Assembly: GCA_044892525.1 (NCBI GenBank)
Contig: CM097885.1
Location: 138,384,001 to 138,448,000, forward strand
Reading direction: 5' to 3'
From: Schmidtea polychroa
Taxonomy: Eukaryota
DNA length: 64,000 nucleotides
Below are positions 137 through 59,580 of the stretch, in pieces. The notes under the pieces were generated by a model. That model ran no database searches and was not told where the DNA came from. It saw only the letters and a program-made list of their open reading frames with translations. The translations under genes and the position numbers were made by a program. Within the stretch, counting starts at the first letter, position 1, and each line of letters starts with the position of its first letter.

Positions 137-1142
137 TGTTAGGGATAGGCCCCTGGCCTTAAATTATTTTAGAATCAGTTTTTTTTATTTTTATTAAAAG
201 GGATTAACTTTGTTTGGACACGCGAGAAATAATAGTTGTAGCAGCTTGCAGAAAAGGAGTGATTAGCAACAGTCAAAGAGAATTATAATTACCTGAGATA
301 GATTAAGCGAAACAATCAGCGTGGAATTATATTTTAGTTATTCAAGAGGAAATAAAAATCTGTTGTTTGAAAACAGCTGGTGTAGATTGACATTGAAATC
401 CCGAATTGGAGAAATTCTAGAAGTAGTTTCAAGTAACCAGGAAAACCAATATTGAAGCACAGCTGTTGTTTGAAGAGGAAATTTAGATATAAATTGTCGA
501 GCGGATTTCACAGACAAGAAAAAAAGAGAAAGTAGGAAGGAGAAAATATTAGAAGCGAATTAATATTGGAAAAAGCCTTGAGAAGTGAAATTGCCGGAGC
601 AGAAGAAATTAGACAGATTTGAAAAATCTAGAGAAGAATTTTTAGGAACCGAGAATATTTAAAAGTAAAGTTTAATTTAATTTAATTTAATTAAATATAA
701 GGGTGGGCGAGGATAAATTAGTATCCTGTGAAATAGTTATAAATAAAGCGAACACAAAGTATTGTTCTTTTACTTTAGTGTTCCCTGGGAGCCCCAAAAT
801 CATTCCCTCTTGCTTGCCCAACTCTTTTAGTCATATTGCGATTGTTGTGCTACATAGGAGCCAACAATTTCTTGCAGACTGTTGACAACAGTAGGGATCA
901 AAGAATCCGTTTTCTTGTACTCTTTGTACATATATTATAAAGTTCATTTGTAAATTATAAAATACATTTTTATAAAAAGAGAAAGGAGTTTTGTTTTTTC
1001 TTATTCAGTGATTTAAACTTAGACGCGCAACCACATTAAATATAACTTATTTATATTTATTTTTTATTTATTTATTTATCTTAATTGAATTATTGGAGTC
1101 ATTTGTGTTAAGATCTGTAGTCCCCGTTTTTCGATCTTAACA
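137..1142 (+). repeat. 5' LTR (1,006 bp)
   Basis: TGTTAGGG...TCTTAACA. Identical to the 3' LTR at offset 14076 apart from two mismatches found by eye (T533/A14609, C889/A14965). Confidence 0.97.
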
Positions 1143-1145
1143 TTT

Positions 1146-1163
1146 TGGTGAGCCCGACGTGAT
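1146..1163 (+). promoter_or_regulatory. Primer binding site, tRNA-Trp
   Basis: TGGTGAGCCCGACGTGAT, 3 nt after the LTR. 17/18 match to the known tRNA-Trp PBS TGGTGACCCCGACGTGAT. Confidence 0.9.
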
Positions 1164-1257
1164 CTAATTTACGGGGGGAATAAGAATTTTATTTATAAAC
1201 GACAAACATCTTTTTGAATCATTGAGTTAAGAAATAGGAGAGTAATAAATTTTAGAC

Positions 1258-1266
1258 CAGGTAATA
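1258..1266 (+). promoter_or_regulatory. Putative splice donor in the element leader (CAG|GTAATA)
   Basis: Consensus donor 20 nt upstream of the gag ATG. Could pair with the acceptor at 11958. Not confirmed by transcripts. Confidence 0.5.
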
Positions 1267-1280
1267 GAAACCAGCAAATA

Positions 1281-2306
1281 ATGGCAGAAATAAATAATTT
1301 ACAAAATCTAAATGAGAATAATTTACATAATAATGTGCCACTAATTCAACCACCAGCGGTAGATTTTATGAGATACCCAACAATTCCGATTAAACCATTT
1401 AGCGGAAACCCAGGGGAGTTTCCAGAATTTATGTCCGAATATTTTCAGTTAGCCAGAGCATTAGGATTTCCGGAACCGGTAATGATTTTGAGATTACCTT
1501 TATATTTAAAAGGGATGGCGCGGGAAATATATAACGATGTTATAATAGCCGAGCATCCAGTTGAATGGAATGTATTACGATTAGCGTTACAAAACAGAAT
1601 ATTACCGGGGGATGCAACTAGAGTGTTGAGACAACAGTTTTATAACAGGCGACAAAATTCGGGTGAGCATGTTGGGGAATTTTCATATCAAATAATGATG
1701 TTGGCAGAGAGAGCATTTGGCAATAGGGCAGCCTGGAATGATGCAACTAGAGCATTAGTAAAAGATCAGTTTTGGTCAGGGTTATCGTCAGCAATGAGAA
1801 ATGCACTCAGTTTACACATAGGAGATAATTTAGAGGAATTAACGCGCAAAGCGTGTTTAATTGAAAGTAGCATTGAGAAGTCAAATAATTTTGCAATCAG
1901 TAGCAATAAGTCAGACATTGAGTGTTTTAATTGTCATAAAAAGGGACACATGTCAAAAGATTGTAAAAGTAGGAATAATTCTCCAGGGGACAAATTGTGT
2001 ACCAAGTGTGGGAGAAATAATCATGTGGCATCAAACTGTAGAATTTCGGACCTAAATTGTGAGAAATGCAAGCGCAAGGGACATGTAGCGTCAGTTTGTA
2101 AAGCTAGTTTTGGGGGGAATAATTCAAATAATAGCAATAATAGAAATAGAAGCCCCGATAGGAATTTTCGAAGTAATAGTAATAACAATAACTTTCAGAG
2201 TAGAAATAATAATTTTAATAATAATATAAAAAGGGATGAAGTAAATTCGGGGGGTAAAATTAAATGTCATAAGTGTGGAAAATTTGGTCATATTATGCGT
2301 TCTTGT
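1281..2306 (+). other. gag: Gag domain with four CX2CX4HX4C zinc knuckles
   Basis: PIKPFSG...F..F..Y capsid-like start. Knuckles at 1923-1964, 1998-2039, 2058-2099 and 2265-2306. Confidence 0.92.
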
Positions 2307-5300
2307 CCACAAAATCAGTTATCTAATAACAATGGTAGTAGTAATGGTAATAATCGATCGAAGCAGACAACGTTTGCAGTGAATTCAGACAACAAATTAA
2401 CGTATTTGCAGCAGCTTGAATTAGAAATTCAAGGAGAGAAAAACAGGTTAGCAAGGCTAACAACAAAGGAAACCGATGGGTATGATGAAAATGAAGCTGT
2501 TTATATGATGTCAGCCAGAAAAAGGCGAAATAAAAATAATTATGTAGAACTTGAAGTGTTGATGCTTCAAGAAAGTCCACAGGAGGACAAAGAGGAAAAG
2601 ACTATGGTCATAGAACCAGAGGTCTGTGAGGGTTTACAGATTTCACCCAGGAAAAATCTAGTGGCTATGGCCATGGAGCCAGAAGCCAACAGAGAAATAG
2701 AAGGTTTACCGGTTTCACCAGTTAAAAATCGTAAGGCTATGGACATGGATCCAGCAGCTAAAGTAATTGTTCCAACAGAAGTTTTGGAAAAAAGATGGGC
2801 TTCGGTCAGTGAACCGGAAGTTCTTATAGCCACATCATCCATGCGAGGTGAGTGTGGTAGTGAACCAATAAAGGTTAGAGAAGCATCGAAAGAGGAAAGA
2901 AATCCCATCGATGACTGTAGAAAAGTATTATTACGCAAGAGCGTATGGCAAAGAGAAATGAGACAGAAATTAGAAAATATTCGTTTAAACCCCGTTAATG
3001 AGAATGAGGTTGACAAAGTAATGGATATCATATCAGAGTTAGACAGAAACGAGGAATATTATCCAGAATTGAGAGAAATTCTGAGAAATATTGGCCTAAA
3101 TTGGAAACAAAGAGAGAATCTGGAAGATTCTACAATTTTTGTATCTTTCCAAAAGGGTTGTTTTCGTAGATATACAATAAACCCAAGTGAAAAGGTAGAA
3201 GCATTGGCAAAGAGAGTTTCTGTGGTAAAACCTCAATTGAGATGCAAACTATATTTATTGGGAGAAAGGTTATTAGAGGGAGAAACCCTGTTAGATTGTG
3301 GTATACTACCAGGGAAACATATGGTTATAAAAGCAAAGTTTCACAAGGAAACTGTTACAGTAGTGGACTTGGATAATGTCCTTACAATAAGCGAGATTGA
3401 AATTGATCAATTAAATCAAATATCAGCCGTACCACATAGGTTGGGAATCGAGCTGATGAAAAACCCAAGAGATGGGGAGGCCATTAAGATGATAATGGAT
3501 TGGATACTGGAGTTGCGAATCCCAGTAGATACTCTTAGAGAGATAATGCCATTGGTGGTGCCTTTAGTAAAAGAGACATCACAATTTCAGACACAAGCAA
3601 AGATGCTGTTGATTAAAAATGGACATGCTATCAGACAATCGGAAGGTAGACAAGGTCCAGTGATGTTAGATATCAGGATACCCAGGAGAGGACACCTGAT
3701 ACAACAATTCTCATGTTATCATAGAGTAAAGAAACTGAGAAAAAGGATATCAGAAATAGTAAAAGAATCATTCCTAATAATGATACATGGTTGTCAGGTG
3801 GATGACGACGAATTTCTAGTAGATGTGGGATGTTTTCCCCAAGAGGAAACAATAGTAATGATATTGTTTATAGAGTTTCCAAAGGATCAGTGGGCAACTT
3901 TGAGATTGCCGGATAATGCAGAAATTGAGGAGGAGACAGTTCCTCTCGAGCAGAAACAAGTAGATGATGATACTCATCTAGAGACAGCAAAGACTGTAGA
4001 TCTCGATGAAGAGATAAATAGATATTTAAAGGAACTCGACAACACAGAGGATGAGTTGATCGAGATATTTCCACCAGAAGAAGATAAAATCATACAACTA
4101 AACCAGAATGAGACAAACATTGGAGCAAGTACCTCGAAATTATTGGAGCTACCAAGGGATAGGGTGGGCCCGAAGTTGGTCGAAAATAGGAGAAAGAAGG
4201 AGAGGAGAGGGAGACCGAGGAAGAGTCAAATGAACCCGTCTCCAAGAGAACTCCTAAGGCCAGTAACTATGCAAAATGTTACCAGACAGGCATTAGCCGG
4301 AATAGCTAGCCAAATAGATAAAAGCGTGGGAGACGCCAGTAGTAAAACAGAAACATGGAGGAAATTAAATCAGATATTACGATTGATTAAGCCTGAATGG
4401 CAAATCAAGAAAGATAAAGATATAAACGTTGAGAAAATCACTGAAAAGATAAAGAAAACAATGGGAAAGATCCCAGGAAATACCACGGAACAAGAAATGT
4501 GCGAAGTGGCAGAACAATTCCTAAATGAAGGAATGACGAAAGGGAAAATGATAACGATTTTAGCCTTAATGTTTAAAAATGCCTTAATGATACTTAAGGA
4601 TGATCAGTCAGGAATTCAAGCAGCCTTAGATAGGTTGACTAATATAATAGAAGTGAATTTCGGAACATGGATGACCGAACACAAGTTTTTGGAGATAAAA
4701 GAGACAAAAGGAAAATATGAGTTAAATGAGGAATTACTAACGGAAAACATTTCGAGTAATCCACGGGGAACAGGTGGATTTACCAGTTGGATGATGATGT
4801 TGTTAGTAATGATGGGAATATTGAGACAGACAAATTCCTTAACGGCATATGATTGTAGTGAACCAATACTATCACGAATATACTCATTAGTAGACACAGT
4901 GGAATGCAAGGAAGCATATCCAGACAAAGTGGCTAAAAGGGAAGATGTAGAATTTTACGTTTATCAACAAACAGAATTTTACCGAACAAGGATAAGGGAA
5001 TGTCGAATACAGAGAGCGACATTTGAATACTATTGTGGATCAAATAGTTATTCAGCATTTTTAGGAGCCAAACTTATTCCCGTACCCTTGATAATCCCAC
5101 CAGAGGATTGTGTAAATGCTTTTCGATCAAAGACGGTCAAAATAGATGATGAAGTGACAATTACTGCTGAAGAGGGAAAGAAATTGGGTATAACTATTAC
5201 CCGGGGAGGACCAATAGCAGATGATGGTTCTTGTCAGGATAGAAAGAAACTACGAGGTTCTAATGTAGTAAGCTATGTGGTAACAGTTGAGGATTACACA

Positions 5301-8177
5301 GTAGAGCTGATCGAGTACGAAGGAACTTTTGAAGTTTCTACGGGGAAAATGATGTCGCATCCAGAATGTAATGCAAAGTTTGGTTATTGTAAAACCAGTT
5401 TAGCAGTATTGACTTATCAATCAATGAGAGATTTTTGTGATTTGGGATACTTGAAAAAGGTAGTATTTTCAAGGCTTGATGGGAAAAGCTTTACGTCTCA
5501 AGACACGAAACAGAGTGGTTGGGGAGACAAGATGGCTCACAAAACGAAAAAAGAGGAAGTAGCAGAGAAAAACACAGCGGTAGTGTTAGTCTCAAAGGAT
5601 CCAACAGACGCAATACGATTAGTCAGAAAGAAACAGACCACAAAGTGTGGAGTATTAACATTTGAAACAAATTATAAAGGAATATATTTAACACACAAAT
5701 ATGTTCCAGCAGCTGAATCGTTACATTTATCAGATATCAAGATAACCAAGTATATCAATAACAAGATTGACTTTCTGTATCATGACTTACAGAAGCAACT
5801 GTTAGATGTATACCAGGAAGTGATCCTGAATGATTGTCGTTTGAACAGAGAAATAATACGTAACAGGTTAGCAATATCGATAGCTAATCCAGATTTAGTA
5901 ATGCCAATGTTAACGGAGGAAGGAACATTTGGTAGAATATTGGGAGAAGCAATCTACAGTTATCAATGTAAAGCAGTAGAGGTAGAAGTCACCAGATATG
6001 ATCAATGTACTGTAGAGCTTCCGGTAAGATATGAAGGAAAACTGAGATTTATGATGCCGGTATCGCATCAGTTATTAAAGGAGGATACATCACCGTTAAA
6101 AACAGTTTGCAATCCAGCAATGTCACCATTGTACAAGATTAACAATATATGGATTTCATTACCAGATAGAAAACCACCTTCGAAACCAGTAGAAGTACTC
6201 CAAGCTACAAAACTGGAAACTAAAATGGAGTTTAGACCATTGAATGAAATGTCAAAAGGTGGAGTATACACTCCAGAGGAGATTGAAGAAGCTCGGAGAG
6301 CAATTGTATTTCCCCAAATCAGAGATAGGGGAGTAACAGAGATAATAACTAGAATCTATCAGTCATATGATGGTAAACCAGATTACAATTTATTATTTGG
6401 GCCGGAACACTACAAACAAGCTGCATCAAATGTGATACGGAAAATCTGGGGTAGATTTACAAGTTTTGGAATATTTGTAGCAGGATGTTCAGGGATATAC
6501 GCAATAATAATGATATTGAAAATAATCATATCACAATTATTTTCCACGTATAGTATCTTCAAGATCGGAGGGTGGTCTTGGAAGTTGCTATTAGGAATGT
6601 GTCCAGTTTGTGCAGACTTTGCAGTATTTCATCATCATAATAAAGAGATTAAGAGAATGAAGAGACAAACTATTAAGAAGCATGAGTTAATAATGTACGA
6701 ACCTAGTCATCGAGACGATGACAATTCTGACGAGGGAGGTAACCTAGAGGGCTACGAGACCTCAGATAACACATCAACAAATCCAGACAACAAAAAACCG
6801 AAATTTAAAAATTTTGAAAATAGAACTTATCAACAGCACCCTGTTAAAGATAAAAATCGGAAAGGACTAAAATGGCCGGTGAAATATTTATCACCTTACA
6901 CAACCAGGAAAAAGATAATATCGGAACAAGTAGAGGAGGAAATGATAAAGCGGCTTGATTTTAGAACAAGTATAGATATAGCAACACCCTTGCCATATCC
7001 GAAATATAATATGAAATTTGAAACAATGCCAGCAATCGGCACATCAGCCATAGAAATGATACCAAGATACCCATTTAGTACGCTGGAGCGTCTAAAGGAA
7101 AATTACCAAGAAGAGACAAAATCGGAAGATGATAAAGACAGCGAGAATCAACAGAAATTTAGAGATAATATCCGAGGAATTTCAACAATATTTATGGTGA
7201 ATATTGGGAAAAAGACTAATAAGCCTACAATTAAATTAAAGGTAAACAGGCATACAGTACATGCCATCATCGACTCAGGATCAGATTTAACACTGATCGA
7301 AGCGAATCTATTAAATGAAAAAGAACTACAAGCAATAGTACCAACATTAACGGGAGCAACTGGAGCAAACGGACAGCCGATCAATGTTATCGGAACATTA
7401 GAGTGTGAATTACGGCTGTGCGACCAGAAATTTAGACACGATATCAAAGTCACAAGAAAATGTATGGCTGAATGTATCGTGGGAATGGATATATTGAAAA
7501 AATTAAAAGATATTGTCTTCGATTGTGCAACAGGTGAATTAGTAAAAATGACGAGTAGAAAACGAAAAACCTACAGTGTGGATGTAGTGTTTCTAGATAG
7601 AACGGTAACCATACCACCAAGAACCGAGACAGTTTGTTTTGTAGCCACACACCAAGAGGTGGAGGGAGATGTTATTTTCGAACCTAGTGAGCAGTTCGTG
7701 AATAGATATAAAACGCCCATGGTGCAAAACTTGGCAACAGTACGGGGAGGAAGAATTCCCATTCGATTAACAAATTTAGCAAGCAAGTCATTGAAACTGT
7801 ACCCAGAAACGAGAGTAGGTAAAATAATGCAACTTGCAAATGTACCCAAAGAAAGTGAGACGATACTATCAGTGCAAGAGGATGAACGAGATCCAGATAT
7901 TGAATATTATGATGCACCAAGTTGTGATAGTAAAGCATTAACTAGAAAAGAGAACATCAGAGTTAATCAGTTGTTACGTAAATATGACCAAGTTTTTGCA
8001 AAACACGAATATGATTTAGGGCAAGTTAATATCTTAGAGCATGAAATTAAATTAACAGAAAATAAACCGATAAAAATACGCCCGTACAGAATACCTCAAA
8101 GTATACAAGGGTCCGTGGATAAACAAATTAAATTAATGCAAAAATATAATATAATTAGACCAAGTAAATCTCCATAG
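1281..8177 (+). CDS. Polyprotein part 1: Gag - accessory domains - Env - protease - start of RT (2,298 aa; ends at a TAG inside the RT motif)
   Basis: Single ORF with a gag capsid-like N-terminus, 4 CCHC knuckles, glycoprotein, IIDSGS protease motif (Asp at 7272) and RT start KQIKLMQKYNIIRPSKSP*. Confidence 0.93.
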   Translation: MAEINNLQNLNENNLHNNVPLIQPPAVDFMRYPTIPIKPFSGNPGEFPEFMSEYFQLARALGFPEPVMILRLPLYLKGMAREIYNDVIIAEHPVEWNVLRLALQNRILPGDATRVLRQQFYNRRQNSGEHVGEFSYQIMMLAERAFGNRAAWNDATRALVKDQFWSGLSSAMRNALSLHIGDNLEELTRKACLIESSIEKSNNFAISSNKSDIECFNCHKKGHMSKDCKSRNNSPGDKLCTKCGRNNHVASNCRISDLNCEKCKRKGHVASVCKASFGGNNSNNSNNRNRSPDRNFRSNSNNNNFQSRNNNFNNNIKRDEVNSGGKIKCHKCGKFGHIMRSCPQNQLSNNNGSSNGNNRSKQTTFAVNSDNKLTYLQQLELEIQGEKNRLARLTTKETDGYDENEAVYMMSARKRRNKNNYVELEVLMLQESPQEDKEEKTMVIEPEVCEGLQISPRKNLVAMAMEPEANREIEGLPVSPVKNRKAMDMDPAAKVIVPTEVLEKRWASVSEPEVLIATSSMRGECGSEPIKVREASKEERNPIDDCRKVLLRKSVWQREMRQKLENIRLNPVNENEVDKVMDIISELDRNEEYYPELREILRNIGLNWKQRENLEDSTIFVSFQKGCFRRYTINPSEKVEALAKRVSVVKPQLRCKLYLLGERLLEGETLLDCGILPGKHMVIKAKFHKETVTVVDLDNVLTISEIEIDQLNQISAVPHRLGIELMKNPRDGEAIKMIMDWILELRIPVDTLREIMPLVVPLVKETSQFQTQAKMLLIKNGHAIRQSEGRQGPVMLDIRIPRRGHLIQQFSCYHRVKKLRKRISEIVKESFLIMIHGCQVDDDEFLVDVGCFPQEETIVMILFIEFPKDQWATLRLPDNAEIEEETVPLEQKQVDDDTHLETAKTVDLDEEINRYLKELDNTEDELIEIFPPEEDKIIQLNQNETNIGASTSKLLELPRDRVGPKLVENRRKKERRGRPRKSQMNPSPRELLRPVTMQNVTRQALAGIASQIDKSVGDASSKTETWRKLNQILRLIKPEWQIKKDKDINVEKITEKIKKTMGKIPGNTTEQEMCEVAEQFLNEGMTKGKMITILALMFKNALMILKDDQSGIQAALDRLTNIIEVNFGTWMTEHKFLEIKETKGKYELNEELLTENISSNPRGTGGFTSWMMMLLVMMGILRQTNSLTAYDCSEPILSRIYSLVDTVECKEAYPDKVAKREDVEFYVYQQTEFYRTRIRECRIQRATFEYYCGSNSYSAFLGAKLIPVPLIIPPEDCVNAFRSKTVKIDDEVTITAEEGKKLGITITRGGPIADDGSCQDRKKLRGSNVVSYVVTVEDYTVELIEYEGTFEVSTGKMMSHPECNAKFGYCKTSLAVLTYQSMRDFCDLGYLKKVVFSRLDGKSFTSQDTKQSGWGDKMAHKTKKEEVAEKNTAVVLVSKDPTDAIRLVRKKQTTKCGVLTFETNYKGIYLTHKYVPAAESLHLSDIKITKYINNKIDFLYHDLQKQLLDVYQEVILNDCRLNREIIRNRLAISIANPDLVMPMLTEEGTFGRILGEAIYSYQCKAVEVEVTRYDQCTVELPVRYEGKLRFMMPVSHQLLKEDTSPLKTVCNPAMSPLYKINNIWISLPDRKPPSKPVEVLQATKLETKMEFRPLNEMSKGGVYTPEEIEEARRAIVFPQIRDRGVTEIITRIYQSYDGKPDYNLLFGPEHYKQAASNVIRKIWGRFTSFGIFVAGCSGIYAIIMILKIIISQLFSTYSIFKIGGWSWKLLLGMCPVCADFAVFHHHNKEIKRMKRQTIKKHELIMYEPSHRDDDNSDEGGNLEGYETSDNTSTNPDNKKPKFKNFENRTYQQHPVKDKNRKGLKWPVKYLSPYTTRKKIISEQVEEEMIKRLDFRTSIDIATPLPYPKYNMKFETMPAIGTSAIEMIPRYPFSTLERLKENYQEETKSEDDKDSENQQKFRDNIRGISTIFMVNIGKKTNKPTIKLKVNRHTVHAIIDSGSDLTLIEANLLNEKELQAIVPTLTGATGANGQPINVIGTLECELRLCDQKFRHDIKVTRKCMAECIVGMDILKKLKDIVFDCATGELVKMTSRKRKTYSVDVVFLDRTVTIPPRTETVCFVATHQEVEGDVIFEPSEQFVNRYKTPMVQNLATVRGGRIPIRLTNLASKSLKLYPETRVGKIMQLANVPKESETILSVQEDERDPDIEYYDAPSCDSKALTRKENIRVNQLLRKYDQVFAKHEYDLGQVNILEHEIKLTENKPIKIRPYRIPQSIQGSVDKQIKLMQKYNIIRPSKSP
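3132..3344 (+). other. Ubiquitin-like domain 1 (no C-terminal diGly)
   Basis: TIFVSFQKG...INPSEKVE...P...KLYLLGERLLEGETLLDCGI aligns with ubiquitin IFV..LTG...VEPSDTIE...P...[20 protein letters not shown]. Confidence 0.72.
3660..3869 (+). other. Ubiquitin-like domain 2 (more divergent)
   Basis: V..LRKRISE...LIMIHGCQVDDDEFLVDVG follows the beta-grasp pattern V..Lk.kI...l...G..l.Dd..L.D.g. Confidence 0.5.
4266..4690 (+). other. Bcl-2-like helical domain
   Basis: EVAEQFLNEGMTKGKMITILAL resembles BH1 ([22 protein letters not shown]). NFGTWMTEH resembles BH2 (HLEPWIQEN). BH1-BH2 spacing matches Bak/Bcl-xL. Confidence 0.55.
4788..6630 (+). other. env: Envelope glycoprotein, chuvirus-G / herpes gB-like (class III fusogen), embedded in the polyprotein
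   Basis: Internal signal peptide WMMMLLVMMGILRQTNS, then LTAYDC. 14 ectodomain Cys. Motif RNRLA...NP...G.FG...GEA.Y..QC..V.V...C..ELPV. TM helix about 6465-6535. Confidence 0.82.
7230..7830 (+). other. Aspartic protease followed by a dUTPase-like beta domain
   Basis: HAIIDSGSDLTLI...CIVGMDIL, then VTIPPRTE...IPIRLTN...LYPETRVG, typical of the Gypsy PR-RT linker. Confidence 0.85.
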
Positions 8178-8186
8178 TCCTCACCT

Positions 8187-10484
8187 TTGGTGGTTGTAGC
8201 TAAAAGAGACGGCTCAGTTAGATTATGTAATGACTATAGGAAATTAAATGAACAGACAGTAAGTGACAATCACCCGCTAACTTTGTTAGATTACATTTAT
8301 GATAAAATGAAAAATTCAAAGTTGTTTACTGTGATGGATGCACAGAAAGGTTTTTATCAAATAAAGATGAGCGAAGACTCAATTCCTATGACAGGATTTT
8401 CTACAAGTAGTGATCATTTCGAATACTTAGTAATGCCGTTTGGATTAAAAGGAGCCCCTCCAACTTTTCAGAGGGCAATGAATATCATGTTGATGGATGC
8501 ACATCACGCAATGGTATATATAGACGATATTATCATCTTCTCGGAAGATTTAGATAAACATTTGGAACATCTTGAAGACATTTTCAAACGATTAATCATG
8601 GCAAACTTAAAAGTTAAACCAAGCAAATGTAAATGGGCAGAATCGGAAGTGATTTACGTGGGGCATGTAATATCACACGATTGCGTAAGACCAGATCCGG
8701 CTAACACGGATAAAGTAAAGAATTTCCCACAACCAGTGAATGTGAAACAAATCAAAGGATTTTTAGGGTTGACGGGATACTATCGGAAATTTATACGAAA
8801 TTTTTCAGCAATTGCTTTTCCTCTAACTACATTAGAAAAGAAAGGTATAAAATTTTTATGGGGAGAAGACCAGCAACAGGCATTTGATAAGTTAAAAGAT
8901 GCACTATGCAAACCACCAATTCTACGATTTCCAGATTTTAAAAGACAATTCATGGTGATGACCGATGCATGCACAAGAGGCATAGGTGCAGTTTTGGGAC
9001 AGAAAGACGAAATTGGCGATGAATACGCAGTAGCATATGCAAGTCGTGGATTGAAGCCACACGAAAAAAGTTATGCTGTAATAGAATTGGAAGCATTAGC
9101 ATTAGTATTTGCAGTGGAAAAATTTAGTCATTATCTATGGGGCAGAAAGGTAATTTTCTATACGGATCATAGACCACTACAATGGTTATTGAAACACAGA
9201 GATGAAGCGTCAAAATTAGTAAGATGGGCATTGAGATTGCAGCCCTATAATATTGAAATAGTATACCGAAAAGGTAAAGCCAATGGTAACGCTGATGCAT
9301 TATCAAGAATGGAACAGGAACCGGAAGCGGAAGATATAAAAGAAGGAAGATTAGAAGGAACTATATTTATGTTGACAAGGGAAGCAAACACCTTGATCGA
9401 CTTGGTAGAGGCACAGAAAAGTGATGACGAAATTAATATGATCAGACAAGCTATAGAAGCCAAAGCCATACCAAGCGAGTTTCAGAAATATTGGGAGAAA
9501 CATAAAGATAAATTCATATTAGACGAAGGTTTGATCAAATATGTAGAGGCAAAAGATAACGTTATATTAGTGCCAAAGAAATATAGAGAACCCTTATTGT
9601 TACAATACCATGATGGAGCACTGGGAGGGCATCTCTCAGCAAGACATACATTGTCTAGATTAAAAATGAAGTATTTTTGGCCAGATATGAAAGATGATGT
9701 CAAGAAATGGTGCCAAACATGCAAGATATGTGTAACCAGGAGGAACACAGGCAGGAAACCTCATGTTCCGTTAAAACCAATGCCAGTACCGTCCTCGCCA
9801 ATGGAGATGACCGCTATGGACGTACTAAGGCCATTTAAAGAATCAAATATGGGAAATAAATTCATAATTGTGTTCTGTGACTACTTAACCAAGTGGCCAG
9901 AAGCATTTCCAATACCGAATCATAAGGCAGATACAATCGCCAGAATTTTTGTCGAGCAAATTGTATTCAGATATGGTGTTCCAACAAAATTACTAACTGA
10001 CAGAGGAAAAGATTTCATGAGTAATTTATTAAAAAGTGTCAATGATTATTTCGGCATATTAAAACTGAACACTTCACCCTATCACCCTCAAACCGATGGT
10101 TTAGTGGAAAGGTTCAATGGAACCTTGGCTAACATGTTATCATCATATGTGAACTCAGGGCAGACGGATTGGGATGTACATATACCGTCCTGTTTGTTCG
10201 CATACAGAAATGCAGTTCACTCAGTCACAGGAGAAACACCATTTTACCTGATGTATTTAAGGCATAGCAAGATGCCAGTAGATCTTTTATTTTATCCTAA
10301 AGCTTCACAAAATTGTGATGAAGGAAATTACCTATTTGAGATGAGAGAAAGGATGCAAGAAGCCTGGGAGAAGGCAGGTTTAAACATTCGTTACAAGCAA
10401 GAGACAATGAAGGAGTATCATGATCGTAAAGCGAAAGATCATGGGTTCTTAGTAGGCGACTATGTAATGCTAGAAGGACATTAA
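8187..10484 (+). CDS. pol: Pol: reverse transcriptase, RNase H, integrase (in frame with the upstream ORF; flanked by premature stops)
   Basis: RLCNDYRKLN, MPFGLKGAP, YIDD; RNase H TDAC/ELE/TDH/DALSR; HHCC zinc finger; DDE core (AMD, LTDRG, VERFN). Same frame as 1281. Confidence 0.96.
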   Translation: MVVVAKRDGSVRLCNDYRKLNEQTVSDNHPLTLLDYIYDKMKNSKLFTVMDAQKGFYQIKMSEDSIPMTGFSTSSDHFEYLVMPFGLKGAPPTFQRAMNIMLMDAHHAMVYIDDIIIFSEDLDKHLEHLEDIFKRLIMANLKVKPSKCKWAESEVIYVGHVISHDCVRPDPANTDKVKNFPQPVNVKQIKGFLGLTGYYRKFIRNFSAIAFPLTTLEKKGIKFLWGEDQQQAFDKLKDALCKPPILRFPDFKRQFMVMTDACTRGIGAVLGQKDEIGDEYAVAYASRGLKPHEKSYAVIELEALALVFAVEKFSHYLWGRKVIFYTDHRPLQWLLKHRDEASKLVRWALRLQPYNIEIVYRKGKANGNADALSRMEQEPEAEDIKEGRLEGTIFMLTREANTLIDLVEAQKSDDEINMIRQAIEAKAIPSEFQKYWEKHKDKFILDEGLIKYVEAKDNVILVPKKYREPLLLQYHDGALGGHLSARHTLSRLKMKYFWPDMKDDVKKWCQTCKICVTRRNTGRKPHVPLKPMPVPSSPMEMTAMDVLRPFKESNMGNKFIIVFCDYLTKWPEAFPIPNHKADTIARIFVEQIVFRYGVPTKLLTDRGKDFMSNLLKSVNDYFGILKLNTSPYHPQTDGLVERFNGTLANMLSSYVNSGQTDWDVHIPSCLFAYRNAVHSVTGETPFYLMYLRHSKMPVDLLFYPKASQNCDEGNYLFEMRERMQEAWEKAGLNIRYKQETMKEYHDRKAKDHGFLVGDYVMLEGH

Positions 10485-10496
10485 AACAAAAAGGGA

Positions 10497-11759
10497 TTGT
10501 CTCCGAAGTTGATGAGAAATTATAAAGGCCCATATCAAATAATGAAGGTCACGGAAACAAACTTGATTTTACAGTTAGTGTCAAACAAGAAAGCGGAACC
10601 CATTATGGTTCACGTAAACAGATGTAAAAAGATAGCTCCACCAGAAAAGGAGAAGCCAAAATCAGAAATAGAAGAATTCGAAATTAATAAGAAATCGAAA
10701 AAGAAAACGTTGGAATCATACAAAAGTATCCTAAAGGGACAACCAGAGAGGTATCCTTTAAGATCCCGACAGATTCCGAAAACTGTAACATTTTTGTCAA
10801 TAATCAGTTGTGTTATGATGATAGGACAAGCATTTGAATTGTTTGATCCAGAAGCTAGTCATCACCCGGATATAGAATACCGGAGAACGGATAGATCATT
10901 CAGATTTTATTTGACAAATCCGCAATGGCACAGATATGATTTATATCTGACAACTCCAGAAAGAGGAGTATCTTTCCATCTAAATCTATGGGATCGAGTG
11001 AAGATAATAGATGGATTATTACCAAATACCAGTTATCTCCTAGAAATTAAGACATATATGTCAGATCCAAACGTGTTCGCAAATGGAGGAGATTGCGATG
11101 ACAAAGCAGAATGGATCGTGAGAACAGCGGTATTTAAGGAAAAAGTGGAAATTACGTATCAGAACCAGACAGTTAAATTCCATCATTTATATTGGAGGAA
11201 AAGTAACACATTTTCTGAACATGATTGGAGAATAAATAATCGAATAGCGCTCCTATACATATTAGAAAATAATAAAACAGTAAAGCAGTTAGTACTCAAC
11301 CAAGCTTATCAACGGAGGAGCTGGACAGTTAAACAAAATATCGAAACGATAGCCAATATAACGTATATGGAATTCACAGAGGAAACAGGCTGGTATACGG
11401 TGTATCATGAGATGATAAAATTAACACCTCCAGCAATAAAGGAAGTAGCTAACCGACGATGGGAGGCTAGATTAGTAAATATCCCGGGTTGTAGAGGAAT
11501 AAATACAATGGATTGGACGAATTTTCAAAGGGTAGCGAGTGAAAAACGTTCACGTGAAAATAAAATAATTAAAAATTGTTCATGTCAGACTGAACTTAAG
11601 GGAAATTCAGGAGATAAAATGCCAAATTGGCTAATCATAACTATTGTAGGGGGAGTAATAATTATGATATTGAGTTTAATAATAGCTACCTTGTGGATGT
11701 TTAAATTAATAATGAGGGACATAAGGTATTGGGAAAATATTTACGAGACCGAGGTTTAG
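10497..11759 (+). CDS. Integrase GPY/F tail plus signal peptide and FN3-like type I membrane glycoprotein
   Basis: LSPKL...YKGPYQI (GPY/F). Signal-like TVTFLSIISCVMMIGQA (10782-10832). FN3 signature IIDGLLPNTSYLLEIKT (11004-11054). Five N-glycan sequons. TM WLIITIVGGVIIMILSLIIATLWMF (11628-11702). Same frame as 1281. Confidence 0.75.
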   Translation: MSPKLMRNYKGPYQIMKVTETNLILQLVSNKKAEPIMVHVNRCKKIAPPEKEKPKSEIEEFEINKKSKKKTLESYKSILKGQPERYPLRSRQIPKTVTFLSIISCVMMIGQAFELFDPEASHHPDIEYRRTDRSFRFYLTNPQWHRYDLYLTTPERGVSFHLNLWDRVKIIDGLLPNTSYLLEIKTYMSDPNVFANGGDCDDKAEWIVRTAVFKEKVEITYQNQTVKFHHLYWRKSNTFSEHDWRINNRIALLYILENNKTVKQLVLNQAYQRRSWTVKQNIETIANITYMEFTEETGWYTVYHEMIKLTPPAIKEVANRRWEARLVNIPGCRGINTMDWTNFQRVASEKRSRENKIIKNCSCQTELKGNSGDKMPNWLIITIVGGVIIMILSLIIATLWMFKLIMRDIRYWENIYETEV

Positions 11760-11946
11760 GGGGAAAAAGTCTCACCAACAAACTAGGCAATGTAAATATA
11801 TAGTTATCTATTTAATAAACCTTATTTATAGTAATGTATTAAAAGTGTGAGCTCAACTGAGCAAAGGTAAAATCAGACATCAGCGTATGTCGACCTTGTG
11901 TACCCTGGGAGGGTCTATCACGAAAGTGATAAAAGCTATTAATTAA

Positions 11947-11958
11947 TTTTATTTTCAG
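11947..11958 (+). promoter_or_regulatory. Putative splice acceptor immediately before the ORF3 ATG
   Basis: TTTTATTTTCAG|CA ATG: polypyrimidine tract plus CAG, 2 nt before the start codon. Confidence 0.6.
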
Positions 11959-11960
11959 CA

Positions 11961-13979
11961 ATGGATCAGAACAGAATGACAAAAGCCCCAATCAAAGCAA
12001 ACAGACGACTTCAAATGGCAAAATACAATTCCCTATGTCCAACAGATATGGAGGTATACAGTACCTTCAAGGAGGAATACGTATACCGGTTCATAGGAAC
12101 CACGGTAGAAACGAAGATGAATCATTTCACTTCGAATAATTGGTATTATCCTAGGAGAGTGGATATCCCAAACGATTATAAATTCCCAGGTGGACCTCAC
12201 AGACAAATGATGATAACGGTTGTAAGCAACCAAGGGAGAATAAAGTTAGGAGATTTATGCAGAGAATATGGATCATGCCCAAGGAGAGAGAACATTTGGA
12301 TTCACGCTATAAATAGGCCAATCACGGTGTTCATGGCAGGTATGGACCTACCCGTGGAATTGGATAAATATAGTACGTTGGAAATATACCATTCAGATGG
12401 ACGTGAAAAGAACATTCAAGTTCAAGCAGCAGCAATAAATTCAATAATAGCGGTGGAAATATTGGAGTTTAGGAAACAACACCCTATTGTGAGTCGAAAT
12501 GAGCCGACATGGATTTATAATGTCAACGAAGCCGACATACAACAGTGCAAGTCGTTCGTAAGAAAATACCTAACAAAAATCGAGGAGGATGAGGCCACAG
12601 TTTTTGTATCAGCAAGATTTGCAAAATCCAGGATGGAGTTAAAAGAAACACTAATCCAAATTGCGATAGTGGATATGAGAGGCAACAATTTATTGAGTGC
12701 GGTAGTGACTCCCAAGGACCCAGTTAAACACTACCAGACGCACCAATATAAACTGAAGGAACCAGAAATCAGAGGAAATTTGGATAAAGACGATTGCCAC
12801 CACCTTATTAGGAAAATTTGTGACAAGAAAATTATAGTTGGAATTTTAATAAAAGATTTAGTTTCGGTAGCCAATCTACCAGTGCAACGATTGTTAGGAA
12901 TCAGAGACTTATCAGCAAATAAGTTGTTAGAATCCAGAGGAGTCCCCAAGATACATGGTCATTATAAATTGGGATTCCTAACAAAGACGTTTTTGCGTAC
13001 GGTTCCCGGAGAACCAAGGAATTTAGTTGTAACAAACGAGGCACTTGCGATCCGAGCGGTTTACCTACAAATCCGAAATGAATGGGTAGATCATATCAGC
13101 ATGCCTCAGGAAGATTACATGTCAGCAACCCGGGCGGAAGCGGTTGACTTAGAAATATTGCAGAAACGAAGACTACCCGAACAACCTTCTACATCAGAAC
13201 AGCCCCAGGCAAAGAAAAGGGGTAGGTCACCAGCAGATTTACCACCACCTCCAACAGTGTCGATAGGAGAAGAAGAATATGAAACATGCGTAAGTGAAGC
13301 TGAATTAACAAGTCCACTCAAACCATCTACTAGTGTCGCAAAGAAATCACAGAAAAAGTCAGAAGTTAAAAGTGCAAAGGAAACCCCAGAGGTAGGCACA
13401 GTCAAAAAGATATTAAAAAAAATAATACCTGGCAAATGCGATAAATCGAAATTGAAATTGAAAAAGGTTGCCAAACAACCAGGGGAGAAGATAGAAATAC
13501 CATCCAGCAAGGATGAAGTAAACAAAGCAGAGCCCAGGAAATTATTTACGGAACCCGATGATGACTTAATGGAAATTGAATTCCAACCTCCAACCAAGGA
13601 ATTGCAAGAGAAAATTAAAATCAAATCAGAACCCGAAGTACGAAAGAAAATGTTAAAGCTAACAAAAGAAAATGTCATAAAGAAGCCAGTATCAGTAGAC
13701 GTAGATGGATTTGATCCTATGTGGTATAAACGTCCTGACAGGAATTGGAAGCCTAGAGCCAAAGAATATAATGGCCAACCCATCACGAGGATGGCGATAA
13801 ATAACAATCAACAATATGATGAGTTTGACGTAGATGGGATACCTTATGTGATATCTACAGTCATACTAACATGCGCCCTGGATGATAAAGCCCTGGCTGT
13901 GAGTTTCGAGCCAGAGGTATTGAAGGAGGTACATCTATACAAAGTTCCTGAACCAGATCCCGACGATCTGGATGTCTGA
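11961..13979 (+). CDS. Element ORF3 (672 aa): unknown N-domain, ISG20/REXO4-like DEDDh exonuclease fold (apparently inactive), Lys/Glu/Pro-rich tail
   Basis: 12597-13064: IQIAIVDMRGNNLLSAVVTPKDPVKHYQT, KIIVG...KDL, IRDLS, YKLGFL, EALAIRAVY track the REXO4/ISG20 pattern, but ExoI DxE reads SAR. NLS-like AKKRGRSP. Confidence 0.75.
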   Translation: MDQNRMTKAPIKANRRLQMAKYNSLCPTDMEVYSTFKEEYVYRFIGTTVETKMNHFTSNNWYYPRRVDIPNDYKFPGGPHRQMMITVVSNQGRIKLGDLCREYGSCPRRENIWIHAINRPITVFMAGMDLPVELDKYSTLEIYHSDGREKNIQVQAAAINSIIAVEILEFRKQHPIVSRNEPTWIYNVNEADIQQCKSFVRKYLTKIEEDEATVFVSARFAKSRMELKETLIQIAIVDMRGNNLLSAVVTPKDPVKHYQTHQYKLKEPEIRGNLDKDDCHHLIRKICDKKIIVGILIKDLVSVANLPVQRLLGIRDLSANKLLESRGVPKIHGHYKLGFLTKTFLRTVPGEPRNLVVTNEALAIRAVYLQIRNEWVDHISMPQEDYMSATRAEAVDLEILQKRRLPEQPSTSEQPQAKKRGRSPADLPPPPTVSIGEEEYETCVSEAELTSPLKPSTSVAKKSQKKSEVKSAKETPEVGTVKKILKKIIPGKCDKSKLKLKKVAKQPGEKIEIPSSKDEVNKAEPRKLFTEPDDDLMEIEFQPPTKELQEKIKIKSEPEVRKKMLKLTKENVIKKPVSVDVDGFDPMWYKRPDRNWKPRAKEYNGQPITRMAINNNQQYDEFDVDGIPYVISTVILTCALDDKALAVSFEPEVLKEVHLYKVPEPDPDDLDV

Positions 13980-14199
13980 CCGAAGGAAATTGCCAGAAGC
14001 CGTTCAATTGAGTGTAAATACGAACTTATCTATATGTGTTTTATGGGACATGGACATTACTTTGTGATTCTGTCATTTATTATTTTGGGAATATGTGTTT
14101 ATATTTTGTTTTATGATTTATGGTAATTTTTATGTAATACTGTTGTCTGCAGTTCTCGAAAAATAATTTTATATCTTGTTTTCGGGACGAAAATCTTTT

Positions 14200-14210
14200 A
14201 GGGGGTAAGA
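14200..14210 (+). promoter_or_regulatory. Polypurine tract
   Basis: AGGGGGTAAGA, 2 nt upstream of the 3' LTR. Confidence 0.75.
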
Positions 14211-14212
14211 CT

Positions 14213-15218
14213 TGTTAGGGATAGGCCCCTGGCCTTAAATTATTTTAGAATCAGTTTTTTTTATTTTTATTAAAAGGGATTAACTTTGTTTGGACACGCG
14301 AGAAATAATAGTTGTAGCAGCTTGCAGAAAAGGAGTGATTAGCAACAGTCAAAGAGAATTATAATTACCTGAGATAGATTAAGCGAAACAATCAGCGTGG
14401 AATTATATTTTAGTTATTCAAGAGGAAATAAAAATCTGTTGTTTGAAAACAGCTGGTGTAGATTGACATTGAAATCCCGAATTGGAGAAATTCTAGAAGT
14501 AGTTTCAAGTAACCAGGAAAACCAATATTGAAGCACAGCTGTTGTTTGAAGAGGAAATTTAGATATAAATTGTCGAGCGGATTTCACAGACAAGAAAAAA
14601 AGAGAAAGAAGGAAGGAGAAAATATTAGAAGCGAATTAATATTGGAAAAAGCCTTGAGAAGTGAAATTGCCGGAGCAGAAGAAATTAGACAGATTTGAAA
14701 AATCTAGAGAAGAATTTTTAGGAACCGAGAATATTTAAAAGTAAAGTTTAATTTAATTTAATTTAATTAAATATAAGGGTGGGCGAGGATAAATTAGTAT
14801 CCTGTGAAATAGTTATAAATAAAGCGAACACAAAGTATTGTTCTTTTACTTTAGTGTTCCCTGGGAGCCCCAAAATCATTCCCTCTTGCTTGCCCAACTC
14901 TTTTAGTCATATTGCGATTGTTGTGCTACATAGGAGCCAACAATTTCTTGCAGACTGTTGACAAAAGTAGGGATCAAAGAATCCGTTTTCTTGTACTCTT
15001 TGTACATATATTATAAAGTTCATTTGTAAATTATAAAATACATTTTTATAAAAAGAGAAAGGAGTTTTGTTTTTTCTTATTCAGTGATTTAAACTTAGAC
15101 GCGCAACCACATTAAATATAACTTATTTATATTTATTTTTTATTTATTTATTTATCTTAATTGAATTATTGGAGTCATTTGTGTTAAGATCTGTAGTCCC
15201 CGTTTTTCGATCTTAACA
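14213..15218 (+). repeat. 3' LTR (1,006 bp)
   Basis: Near-identical to 137-1142; followed by TSD AATT. Confidence 0.97.
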
Positions 15219-15843
15219 AATTGTTTTAATTTTTAAAGATTTTTATAGCATTCAATATAGAATTAAATTATAAGACTTTCTCATTACACAATTTTCATCA
15301 AATCAATATTTGTTATTAAATGTTATAATAATCTTATATAATATTTATTTTCATTTTAGATGTTCTAGATCCAACCGAATTTATCTCAAAATCCAGAAGA
15401 CAGAAAGCCACAGAAAGGCATAGTTTCATAAAATCAATATTTTTGGTTAAGAGGTCTGTTGAAATTAATACAAACTTTAGACAAAAAAACGCTTTTTATG
15501 TAATGCTAAAATTAAGCTTGATTGATCGTGATTTGATGACATTCGAATAATTTCTCCGAAATTTTTTGCAAAAGCTTTCACTAAAAAATTTCGCGATTTA
15601 AAACATATATTGAGATGATGTGCAATTTACTCCTCAGATTTCTTTATAATGTCATTTTTATCGATTTCCAAAAATTATTTTGTACGATAACTGTAAATAA
15701 TACCTATTGTATGTTGAATTTGTATGTCTGATTATTATGTAATGTATGTTTGTTAAAGCGAAATGGAAAATAATTAGTGAAAAGTGAAAATTAAAACGAA
15801 AATTTTGTAATTGCAACACTTTAAATTTTAGACGAATGAAACC

Positions 15844-46798: not shown

Positions 46799-46931
46799 TA
46801 TAAGTTAGATATCTTGTTGTTTTAATAATTAGGAATTTGCGGTTTTTGTGAATTAATTAAAACTTGTTATTTATAAATTCTTTGATTAAATATATATTGT
46901 TAGTTTCAAGATTTTTGCTGCAAATTTAAAG

Positions 46932-47615
46932 ATGGATCTAAAGATGGATTTAACTGGCGACCACGCTGAAAATCAAAATATGAACGCCATTTCAAAATCG
47001 ACAAAATCGCTAATGGAATGCCTACCGAAATCATGCCAAGACATGCTCACACTGAACATCAGACGATATGATGGACGAGGTTTAAAAGAAGCCGAAGAAG
47101 AATGGTTGCTGACAAATGGACAGCGATTGACAAGCACTTTCGATGTGTTATTAGTGGCAGAAGCAAAGACATTGTGGGAAAACGTCAGAGAAACAGAAAC
47201 AACAGATGTAAAAGCCAAAGCGTGGTTCTTGAATACGTTCACAATTACAAAATCTATAACTGACAAAATCAGAGAATTGGCAGCTATGGAACAGGAAGAT
47301 GATGAAAGGTTTGCAGCTTTTGAGATACGGCTAAGAAAAGTTTTAGCTGAAGTTGTAAATTCAGGACGATCAGAAGAAGATATTGTTCAAGACCTCATCG
47401 CAAATAAAGCAGGCGATGCGAGACTGCGGGAGATACTATTGACGAAACCAGAAACAAAAATTGAAGAAACGAGATCATTGGCGAAAATTTTTGAAAGTAA
47501 CAAAAATGGAAACCATAAAACAGAATTTGTTAAAGCAATCGGTCAAAGAACATACGCTAGCGTGACTGAGGGAGGGCTGATGAGAATTCAACAGAATACC
47601 CAAAATAAATTGTGA
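46932..47615 (+). pseudogene. gag: gag of copy A, truncated (zinc knuckles deleted)
   Basis: Helical gag with EQEDDERFAAFEIRLR. Lacks the CCHC segment present in copy B. Confidence 0.8.
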
Positions 47616-47817
47616 AATAAGAAATGAACGACGAAGAGGCGAGGCAGAAGAAGAGATGTACCAGACGAAAGATGGAAGAAATTGGAGTAAAATAATGTTG
47701 AATAATGATCAGGGAATACGGCGGAATTTTTATGGCATCGAAATTCGATCTGGAATTTACAAACTTAGTTCAACATGAGATGCGGATAACAGGAGGCAAC
47801 ATCCTCGACGTCAACCA

Positions 47818-50317: not shown

Positions 50318-50483
50318 GAAGGGGAGAGTTAGATATCTTGTTGTTTTAATAATTAGGAATTTGCGGTTTTTGTGAATTAATTAAAACTTGTTATTTATAA
50401 ATTCTTTGATTAAATATATATTGTTAGTTTCAAGATTTTTGCTGCAAATTTAAAGATGGATCTAAAGATGGATTTAACTATAT

Positions 50484-56700: not shown

Positions 56701-57494
56701 TAAAATTAATATAAATAAAATTAAATTAATAGTTTTTGGAATTTTATTATGAAAATTTAATATTACACAATATAAATATTTATCAATAAAACATTAAAAA
56801 ACAGAAATTCGAAAATTTTTTAGTAATTAATAAGATATTTAAAATTTTCAAATTCAAACCTTGATAAGATATTTAGTTATATCTCGACCGGCGATATCGA
56901 GTCTTCTAGTTAAGTGAGGCAAAGAAAATCCTTCATAAACCGGACAAATGTGAGTTACTCCATCACCAGAATCTATGACAACTCCTGTCATTAAACCTTG
57001 AGCAATTAGAGTTAGTGTTGCCTGAATTGCAACATGCATGGCTTTGAATCCATATGTTTCAAACATTAACTCTCCCATACGTTCACGATTTTTCAATGGA
57101 TTCAATGGTGGTTCAGTTAATAATATTTTGGAATGTGTTGGGTCAACATTCAATTTTGTAGGTCCAAATGTATAATCATATAAATGTTTCATGTCATCCC
57201 AATTTCTAACAATACCATTATCCATTGGATATGAGCATTCGAGCATTTGACGTAATTCACTAGCCTCGTCACCAATAACCAAATCTTTAACTTCAACATT
57301 ACCAACTCGTGCAGATGCTCTTAAAATTGGTCTTCCTACCATTGAAGGAAATATAAATTGAGGAAAATTGGAGCCAGCAAAGCCACATTTTACAAACTAA
57401 ATTCAAACTAATGTATATTTCTTATTTGAAAACTTAAATTAAATACCCCAGTTCCATTATCACAAACGACAATGCGATCACCAGAAGAATCCAT
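53725..57494 (-). CDS. ACTR2: Actin-related protein 2 (Arp2/3 complex), 389 aa, 4 exons
   Basis: Exons 57494-57447, 57396-56860, 54359-53931, 53880-53725 (TAA). GT-AG introns of 50, 2500 and 50 nt. Motifs [56 protein letters not shown]. Confidence 0.97.
55200..55900 (+). mobile_element. hAT (GTF2IRD2/SPIN-like) 3' remnant in ARP2 intron 2
   Basis: EF..RF.D...LQLEL...F.STY.CE..FS.MN..K...R..L..EHL...LRI, with stops and frameshifts. Confidence 0.75.
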
Positions 57495-58877: not shown

Positions 58878-59580
58878 ACTGATTGGTTTGTCGACCGGGA
58901 CTTTGAGCTGGTTAATTTCTTTGACCATCTTTACAATTTTATTCAAATACTCAAATAAATTCTTTCGTTTAATTTGTCAACTAATTCTTTTCTTTAAGTC
59001 TTCTCCGACAATTGTTCTTCACAATAATTTACTTTACAATTATTCTTCACAAATCGTTTCCCCAATAACGTTTCGTCCTGCTCTGTCTAATTTGTCGTCT
59101 CACTTTTTATATCTCAATTTGTGTCAATTTTATGTCCACCAGTTTCTCTTTATATAGCTTGCTTTATTTGTGGTCCATGAGATAATCAAATGTTTTTTTA
59201 CCATTTTTCCTACTGTCTTTCCCGACTGTTCCAATTTTATCTCTGAAAGCTGTCGAGATATTTTTCCATTTTCCTTTTTTGTTAAACCGCCTTCTCCCGG
59301 CAATTCCACTATCTTTGAGCTGTCAAGATACGGTTTTTTTCTTCTATTTTGTTTTTCTGGAATTAGAAATTCCTTTTCTTCTTTGTATTAATTAATTAGT
59401 ACTGACCTTTTGTTTTCTTGTTTAATTTTTTTTGTTTTATTCTTCTTTCTCATTTGTCATTTCTTTTTACTTCCGTTTTCTTTTCTGAGTTCCCATAGAT
59501 CGTCCCGTTTGTCATGACGATCTTCCCCAAAGTAATTTTATTTCTTTATTTATAAATTTGTTATTTAGGTATCCTCAACA
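58878..59580 (-). repeat. Unclassified repeat, copy 1 (possible solo LTR of a third family)
   Basis: Homologous to 60842-61400. Both start TGTTGAGGATACCTAAATAA on the minus strand and are purine-rich. Left boundary uncertain. Confidence 0.55.

Follow-up and report, generated by a model that had tools for sequence, protein, structure and literature searches.

The window analysed here is a stretch of 64,000 nucleotides (nt) from Schmidtea polychroa (assembly GCA_044892525.1, contig CM097885.1, positions 138,384,001 to 138,448,000 of the forward strand), near whose start lies a 15-kb retroelement of the Ty3/Gypsy type. In one giant frame it codes for Gag, a series of accessory domains, an envelope (Env) fusogen, Pol and a second predicted membrane protein, followed by a separate gene, open reading frame 3 (ORF3), related to ISG20-like exonucleases (Table 1). 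We assign it with high confidence to the GAG-ENV-POL errantiviruses, as a compact relative of the Burro elements and not as Burro itself. Its ends are those expected of Ty3/Gypsy elements, namely long terminal repeats (LTRs) with TG...CA termini, a target-site duplication (TSD) within the usual 4-6 nt and a primer-binding site (PBS) complementary to a tRNA, and the Pfam search found the Pol domains in the order of that superfamily, protease (PR), reverse transcriptase (RT), RNase H (RH) and integrase (IN). TSDs of 4 nt are also visible at other two-LTR copies in the genome. The PBS pairs with the 3' end of a tRNA-Trp(CCA) encoded in the same genome, where the tRNA-Trp pattern gave 821 matches versus none for the reversed control (the first 100 of the 821 were listed, and of two loci scanned one yielded six gene calls); the related families B, C, D and E, introduced below, likewise have a PBS start of Trp type. 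The tRNA-Trp(CCA) genes themselves form a tandem array with a period of 284 nt, from G000:C4:55022433 on (L058-L060).

Because the two LTRs are nearly identical (2 mismatches in 1,006 nt) and the joint of an empty site, position 132 running directly into 15219, occurs in contigs of 2/4 runs (two studies), this insertion is young and likely polymorphic. A preliminary description of this DNA, made from its letters, had reported complete LTRs, TSD, PBS and polypurine tract and had called the element young; all four features were located at the element ends, and its youth is borne out by the LTR identity and the empty-site joint. AAT-type microsatellite sequence lies on both flanks of several copies (L005/L006, L027/L028, L035/L036 and two copies of family B), which, in a count made without a control, suggests a target preference.

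Table 1. Features of the errantivirus-like element and their positions in the window
Feature	Position	Strand	Remarks and basis
Whole element	137-15218	+	15,082 nt Ty3/Gypsy-type insertion
Target-site duplication AATT	left copy 133-136, right copy 15219-15222	.	sequence inspection
5' LTR	137-1142	+	1,006 nt, TG...CA
Primer-binding site	1146-1163	+	complementary to the 3' end of tRNA-Trp(CCA)
Gag with four CCHC-type zinc knuckles	1281-2400	+	Pfam zf-CCHC E 1.2e-11
Three-helix domain 1	2940-3128	+	model, predicted local distance difference test (pLDDT) about 80-88
Ubiquitin-like domain 1	3129-3344	+	Pfam ubiquitin, best E 5.7e-5; NEDD8 E 4e-5; model
Helical domain 2	3393-3638	+	predicted model
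Ubiquitin-like domain 2	3657-3869	+	pLDDT 82-90; ISG15 E 0.004 at profile 237-305
Divergent Bcl-2-like domain (candidate)	4311-4700	+	directly 5' of the Env signal peptide; sequence profiles
Env: internal signal peptide, class III gB/chuvirus-type ectodomain, transmembrane helix	4782-6560	+	Pfam, hydropathy
Aspartic protease, DSGS motif	7218-7508	+	Pfam RVP E 4.5e-8
Copy-specific in-frame stop, codon 2299	8175-8177	+	start of RT
RT, RNase H, integrase (H2C2 and core)	8178-10481	+	Pfam
Copy-specific in-frame stop, codon 3068	10482-10484	+	end of integrase, before the GPY/F domain
Second type I membrane protein, continuing the frame beyond integrase	10785-11759	+	predicted signal peptide, two FN3-type domains, stalk, transmembrane helix, PDZ-type end
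T-rich tract and AG, candidate cis or trans splice acceptor	11945-11958	+	just 5' of the ORF3 ATG
ORF3	11961-13979	+	672 amino acids: N-terminal domain, DEDDh-like domain, long charged tail
ISG20/REXO4-like DEDDh domain lacking its catalytic residues	about 12561-13130	+	profile matches
Polypurine-tract-like stretch, short, G-rich	14200-14212	+	directly before the 3' LTR
3' LTR	14213-15218	+	1,006 nt, TG...CA; 2 mismatches against the 5' LTR

The main frame runs from the ATG at 1281 to the stop codon at 11757-11759 and comprises 3,492 codons, two of which are in-frame stops. For comparison we fetched 20 other copies, the best env matches in the genome (18 at 97-100% identity, two at about 90%): the site of the first stop is a sense codon in all 20 and that of the second in all 16 copies that cover it, while the terminal stop is retained in 17/17. 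No other copy examined has either internal stop, which rules out stop-codon readthrough and a variant code as explanations, and this copy cannot make RT or integrase. The single frame of 3,492 codons reported earlier is thus correct in length and extent, but it is not open here, the two stops having gone unmentioned in that description; uninterrupted gag, env and pol frames are found in some other copies of the family. Despite the stops in this copy, the family is, as read from its members, one single predicted polyprotein.

The related families of this genome are A (this element), B (env at about 93%), C (62%), D and E (34-48%), and F. Frames of 3,366-3,516 amino acids were counted by hand among the 150 env matches listed, which gives as lower bounds at least 1 of 18 A-like, at least 10 of 46 B-like and at least 4 of 86 C-like rows. 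The ratio of nonsynonymous to synonymous substitution rates (dN/dS), computed for this copy against one B copy, is 0.01-0.28 in 20/22 segments, the exceptions being a low-complexity linker after Gag (0.74) and one segment for which it is not computable. Such ratios show, at the level of codon comparison, purifying selection on every module of the family. The values of dS between A and B are uneven, 0.05-0.20 from gag to the second ubiquitin-like domain and over RT as against 0.5-2.5 elsewhere, which points to recombination between the two families. Seven partial env matches at 97%, all with the same truncation point, are clustered at G000:C1:152892032-153446732 and probably represent a segmental amplification.

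The Env module matches the Pfam family Monjiviricetes_fusion (PF24664) with E 1.7e-79, which confirms that a fusogen lies between gag and pol, as the first reading of the sequence had it. It is of the HSV/gB type (HSV, herpes simplex virus) and has a signal peptide and a transmembrane helix, as expected of errantiviral env proteins, and it stands in the GAG-ENV-POL order seen in the members from Platyhelminthes. The ectodomain of this copy contains 14 cysteines, all preserved in families A, B, C and D, and neither a furin site nor an N-glycan sequon; sequons are absent from it in both A and B, and, according to the available part of a recent survey (Chary & Hayashi, eLife 2026, PMC13524379), gB-type env does not conserve the furin site in every case. 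Comparison of an Env profile with PDB returned no true sequence match. At dN/dS 0.03-0.06 between A and the B copy, Env is under strong purifying selection. Downstream, a conserved block of 100 amino acids between PR and RT takes the position of the dUTPase-like domain of Burro, with no dUTPase match in Pfam or PDB.

Among 3,935 long Pol relatives the 120 best were listed, and 34 of these entered an RT-RNase H tree of 40 rows together with the five genome families and one unrelated Gypsy element from the window; the database rows are Gypsy-type proteins, with no named reference elements. In this tree 23 rows (the five genome families and 18 database proteins) form one clade with support 99/99, across which env is retained. 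Env precedes the protease in one chain in 12/15 scanned database polyproteins, and the other three start inside pol. Extra aspartic-protease-like domains (one or two, some of them after the integrase) occur among the relatives P0021, P0031, P0037, P0038, P0039, P0042, P0043 and P0052, and two of these, P0031 (inside the clade) and P0052, carry ankyrin repeats before the membrane protein. An R-Y-x-L-R motif lies at 10749-10766, beyond the GPY/F domain of the integrase, and is shared by 16 of the 23 clade tails; we take it to resemble the anchor by which foamy virus Gag binds the nucleosome acidic patch.

The region between Gag and Env was analysed in seven aligned copies from families A-E. The Pfam scan detected ubiquitin in 4/7 and Bcl-2 in 3/7 of them, profile matches of the alignment in PDB were NEDD8, ubiquitin, ISG15 and BFL-1, and the predicted model shows the order helical, ubiquitin-like (Ubl), helical, Ubl at pLDDT about 70-90; the model of the Ubl region aligns over both domains of di-ubiquitin and of ISG15. 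Pfam, PDB profiles and predicted structure thus uphold the two Ubl domains called earlier. The two helical domains gave no meaningful PDB sequence match in the profile search, and a TFIIS-N-like reading of them gained no support. Chains of Atg5 that came up in the structure search (TM-score about 0.12, root-mean-square deviation about 21 A) were taken to reflect domain order only. The following domain matches Pfam Bcl-2 with E 0.003 in this copy and 1.3e-5 in family E, both below the curated cut-off; the best 60 of 107 PDB matches of its profile are Bcl-2-family proteins by name (one is unnamed; best E 5.8e-4), and a BH1/BH2-like pattern was found, with a BH2-type motif that D and E show more clearly than A-C do. 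The Bcl-2-like assignment, a weak one made from sequence comparison, therefore keeps its profile matches and falls short in the Pfam score and in a poor model.

The giant Gypsy-like planarian elements Burro/GYPSM1 (Arkhipova & Yushenova 2019, PMC6431247) have polyproteins of the order Gag-CCHC-...-Ubi2/SUMO-like-BCL2-env-PR-RT-RH-IN, with env in frame between gag and pol; that work called this in-frame env ahead of PR the first such case and proposed the elements to be integrated proviruses meddling with apoptosis and ubiquitination. Shared with the present element are the single polyprotein, Gag, CCHC knuckles, Ubl and BCL2-like domains, an in-frame env of mononegaviral type, PR-RT-RH-IN and the possession of accessory ORFs. 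A one-frame core order gag-Ubl-Bcl2-env-pol has been described before, and the layout is not new. Burro elements, however, exceed 30 kb and code for 4,873-5,140 amino acids, as opposed to 15 kb and 3,492 codons here; they carry MATH, BIR and ankyrin domains, for which Pfam gave nothing here at E up to 1, and a Ubi2/SUMO-like unit in place of two Ubl domains. Because the size and the MATH, BIR and ankyrin features do not agree, we filed the element as Burro-like and not as Burro. Section 7 of that paper, which describes Burro, mentions neither a membrane protein after the integrase nor a nuclease ORF.

The survey of Chary & Hayashi catalogues, in its available part, elements of Platyhelminthes that have the GAG-ENV-POL order and a gB-type env, of which Schmidtea mediterranea accounts for six; GAG-ENV-POL elements are not monophyletic there, and env-mediated transmission is called unresolved for most of the catalogued elements. 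Its operational use of the name errantivirus covers env-bearing Ty3/Gypsy elements and does not demand infectious enveloped particles of the kind that Drosophila gypsy forms. Smed_errantivirus_4 has its gB-type env between gag and pol, as here, and domains I-II of that env align with ours without gaps at 157/252 identical positions (about 62%, counted by hand). Rows of that survey with GAG-ENV-POL order and HSV/gB-type env span 14.5-18 kb, a range that includes our 15 kb; its S. mediterranea rows have no PBS or LTR assigned, whereas both are defined here. The main text as available mentions none of polyprotein, accessory, single ORF, exonuclease, fibronectin, Bcl, ubiquitin and Burro. More distant parallels, again from the available parts of the sources, are Anakin (PMC12440569), a BEL/Pao element with a chuvirus glycoprotein, which shares the class III env but belongs to another superfamily, and nematode ENV-POL elements (Sacco 2022, via PMC13524379), which share the gB-type env before pol but live in another host. 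For the two remaining modules, the post-integrase fibronectin type III (FN3)/PDZ protein and the dead ISG20-like ORF, no prior description was found in the literature searched, to which Repbase, Grohme 2018 and most eLife supplements did not belong.

The first of these modules continues the polyprotein beyond the integrase and had been noticed from the outset as a second surface protein. Its predicted model shows a signal peptide, two beta-sandwiches and a transmembrane helix, and Foldseek aligned it with tandem FN3 pairs (best E 7.9e-8); the matches listed are FN3-type proteins, and the top ones include IFNAR1, gp130 and the IL-10/IL-22 receptors. A profile of 14 first FN3 units matches neogenin, IL-22R1 and IFNAR1, while the protein of this copy alone has no useful sequence match in Pfam or PDB. 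Atlas placed it with FN3-type clusters at 0.90, recognition being below threshold, and this is a weak lead. When the tails following the GPY/F anchor were compared, at least two hydrophobic segments were found in 19/23 clade rows, one in three rows and none in one, versus none at all in the five testable outgroup rows (11 outgroup rows lacking the anchor were left out of the count). These counts show a predicted post-integrase membrane protein to be clade-wide. The pattern [ST]-x-[VLI] is that of class I PDZ-binding C-termini, and it ends 13/25 chains versus 0/101 other Pol matches. The ectodomain is the fastest-changing long domain, with 63% identity between A and B and 22-23% between A and C (Env: 94% and 62-67%); tested over the whole domain, its dN/dS is 0.22 and gives no hint of positive selection. 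In two basal relatives (P0082 and P0089) an immunoglobulin (Ig) domain stands in place of the FN3 ectodomain.

The second module, ORF3, is preceded by a T-rich tract and AG in 4/4 ORF3-bearing families examined (A, B, C and E). Profiles of ORF3 match ISG20L2 (E 1e-9 and 5e-26), ISG20 and SDN1, and Pfam RNase_T was detected in 15/35 members, but not from this copy alone; the N-terminal domain received no identity from profile searches. The first D, the E and the His of the D-E-D-D-h motif are absent in families A, B and C, and every A, B or C locus that includes the catalytic positions has lost these residues (18 of the 19 loci in the alignment, the nineteenth belonging to E). By contrast, the catalytic D and E are retained in 9/9 E copies and 12/12 F copies, and in 22/42 database rows that share the N-terminal domain. 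By its sequence, then, ORF3 of A-C is a pseudo-enzyme, and the earlier call of a separate dead DEDDh nuclease gene holds, given the ISG20L2 matches and the absent residues. The dead domain has dN/dS 0.04 at dS 1.8 (this copy against one B copy). Word-index protein searches with the accessory region or ORF3 found nothing, blanks that carry little weight since the ORF3 profile search found 972 proteins, 34 of them at E <1e-30; these come without genomic context, and their link to retroelements is one that we infer. In a quick tree of 63 rows, one branch (SH-aLRT 94, not starred) separates 22 dead from 40 intact sequences, and 0/500 shuffles gave a split as low; as the catalytic columns were kept in the alignment and branches are long, a single origin of the dead form is compatible with this tree rather than demonstrated by it.

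Near 13925, an in-frame segment of 57 nt (19 codons) is missing from ORF3 of this copy, whereas 10/10 copies whose two flanks there could both be matched exactly have it; a lost intron was ruled out, the segment having no GT...AG ends. One copy of family E lacks almost exactly the ORF3 frame of another (L054 versus L056), which makes ORF3 a cassette that elements can lose or acquire. A separate exonuclease ORF3 of the DEDD fold also lies 3' of pol in the bdelloid rotifer elements Juno and Vesta (Rodriguez et al. 2017, PMC5408684, in the part available), but there it is DEDDy/RNase D-like and catalytically intact, whereas here it is DEDDh/ISG20-like, dead in A-C and active-looking in E and F.

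On balance we favour the view that the locus holds a recent, stop-damaged insertion of a compact Burro-like element whose family likely spreads from cell to cell and whose dead nuclease likely shields RNA; spread between cells, taken by itself, we regard as rather probable. The chain of about 3,500 amino acids would cross the membrane of the endoplasmic reticulum four times, at signal 1, the Env transmembrane helix, signal 2 and the final transmembrane helix, so that Gag-Ubl-Ubl-Bcl2 and Pol would face the cytosol and both glycoproteins the lumen. Signal peptidase would free both glycoproteins, signal 1 could double as tail anchor of the Bcl-2-like domain, and Pol, sitting in a cytosolic loop, would be released by the element's own protease. 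PDZ scaffolds may retain the FN3 protein at membrane sites, for example junctions, where it would act as adhesion or attachment partner of the fusogen, a role we propose tentatively, while survival of the producing cell would be the task of the Bcl-2-like domain. A spliced RNA, using the candidate acceptor of Table 1, would be the template for ORF3, which might attach to RNA ends and leave them uncut, or be a decoy, and in this way oppose piRNA silencing or the host's RNA decay; this binding role, too, is a possibility that we put forward with some reserve. The present copy would make only the chain up to the protease.

Several observations weigh against this picture. The roles in spread and binding are read from sequence and models. 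The FN3 model has a mean pLDDT of 58 and query TM-scores of only 0.20-0.36, the units of the FN3 profile (alignment A4) had been selected visually because they show an FN3-like motif, single-domain E-values are weak in the three alignments shown, and Pfam fn3 was detected in 1/14 members. The rows of the PDZ count are related, so that a binomial value from it is not a probability, and a swappable ectodomain fits immune decoys as well as attachment. The Bcl-2 match lies under the Pfam cut-off, its region was modelled at pLDDT about 35-55, and no Bcl-2 chain is among the Foldseek rows listed for the model. Finally, ORF3 is absent from both D copies fetched and from one of two E copies, and frame breaks are present in most copies of family A.

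A bolder version would see here a complex invertebrate retrovirus, which makes a class III fusogen and a swappable FN3/Ig attachment protein from one chain, docks by PDZ binding at junctions, carries an anti-death module and possesses an ISG20-like gene split into active and dead forms, the dead one suppressing host RNA silencing; in this full form we think it unlikely. The opposite view, of an intracellular retrotransposon whose membrane proteins and Bcl-2-like domain act on the host cell (its survival, fusion or polarity) or place assembly without any transfer, can point to the PDZ-type tail and the Bcl-2-like domain, both of which would face the producing cell, and to the unresolved env transmission of most elements in the available part of PMC13524379. 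A fusogen with so low a dN/dS, its 14 cysteines kept in A-D and its retention throughout the clade speak for transfer, and we consider the purely intracellular alternative rather unlikely. The FN3 protein might instead mimic a cytokine or adhesion receptor and damp host signalling or immunity: it changes fastest among the long domains, the receptors named above are among its top structure matches, and Ig replaces its ectodomain in two relatives. However, those receptor matches reflect the common FN3 fold at 8-16% identity, the whole-domain dN/dS gives no sign of positive selection, and the protein shares its chain with the fusogen, which renders mimicry improbable compared with the attachment role that we prefer.

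Decay of ORF3 in A-C from the active exonuclease gene of E and F would account for the lost catalytic residues and for the absence of ORF3 from some kin; it is largely refuted by the dN/dS of 0.04 over the domain, and the long open frames in A, B and C and the placement of the 22 dead rows on one side of a branch are likewise at odds with it, leaving it very improbable. Just as hard to sustain is an undescribed complex-virus lineage unrelated to Burro. Half of Burro's size, the missing MATH, BIR and ankyrin matches and the two modules for which the searched literature held no description would suit it; the core order of Burro, the ungapped env alignment with Smed_errantivirus_4 and the ankyrin-bearing relatives do not. 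The preliminary description had thought of an undescribed lineage and had named, as findings that would speak against it, a described family with the same domain order and failure of the accessory domain calls; a described family with the same core order does exist, while the domain calls did not fail, and novelty of the lineage has to be given up.

If a second, variable surface protein is indeed shared by the clade, these elements would resemble two-glycoprotein viruses, and the protein would provide a handle on whether gB-type errantiviruses move between cells. The active and dead ISG20-like proteins of sister families, the dead one under strong selection, would offer a clean test case of counter-defence. 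According to the available part of PMC8532177, BURRO1 is under tissue-specific PIWI control, and such a test would be feasible where PIWI silencing of these elements can be switched off.

The rest of the window contains an ordinary short Gypsy element of 3.7 kb (46803-50479) with identical direct repeats of 153 nt and a broken pol, which falls outside the env-bearing clade, and, on the reverse strand, exons of a host actin-related gene (53916-57396), Arp2-like by eye. A degraded LTR-like element follows on the same strand (59339-63476); its 150-nt repeats are 96% identical, and it contains part of a gag with a zinc knuckle as well as an internal duplication with a spacing of about 1.8 kb.

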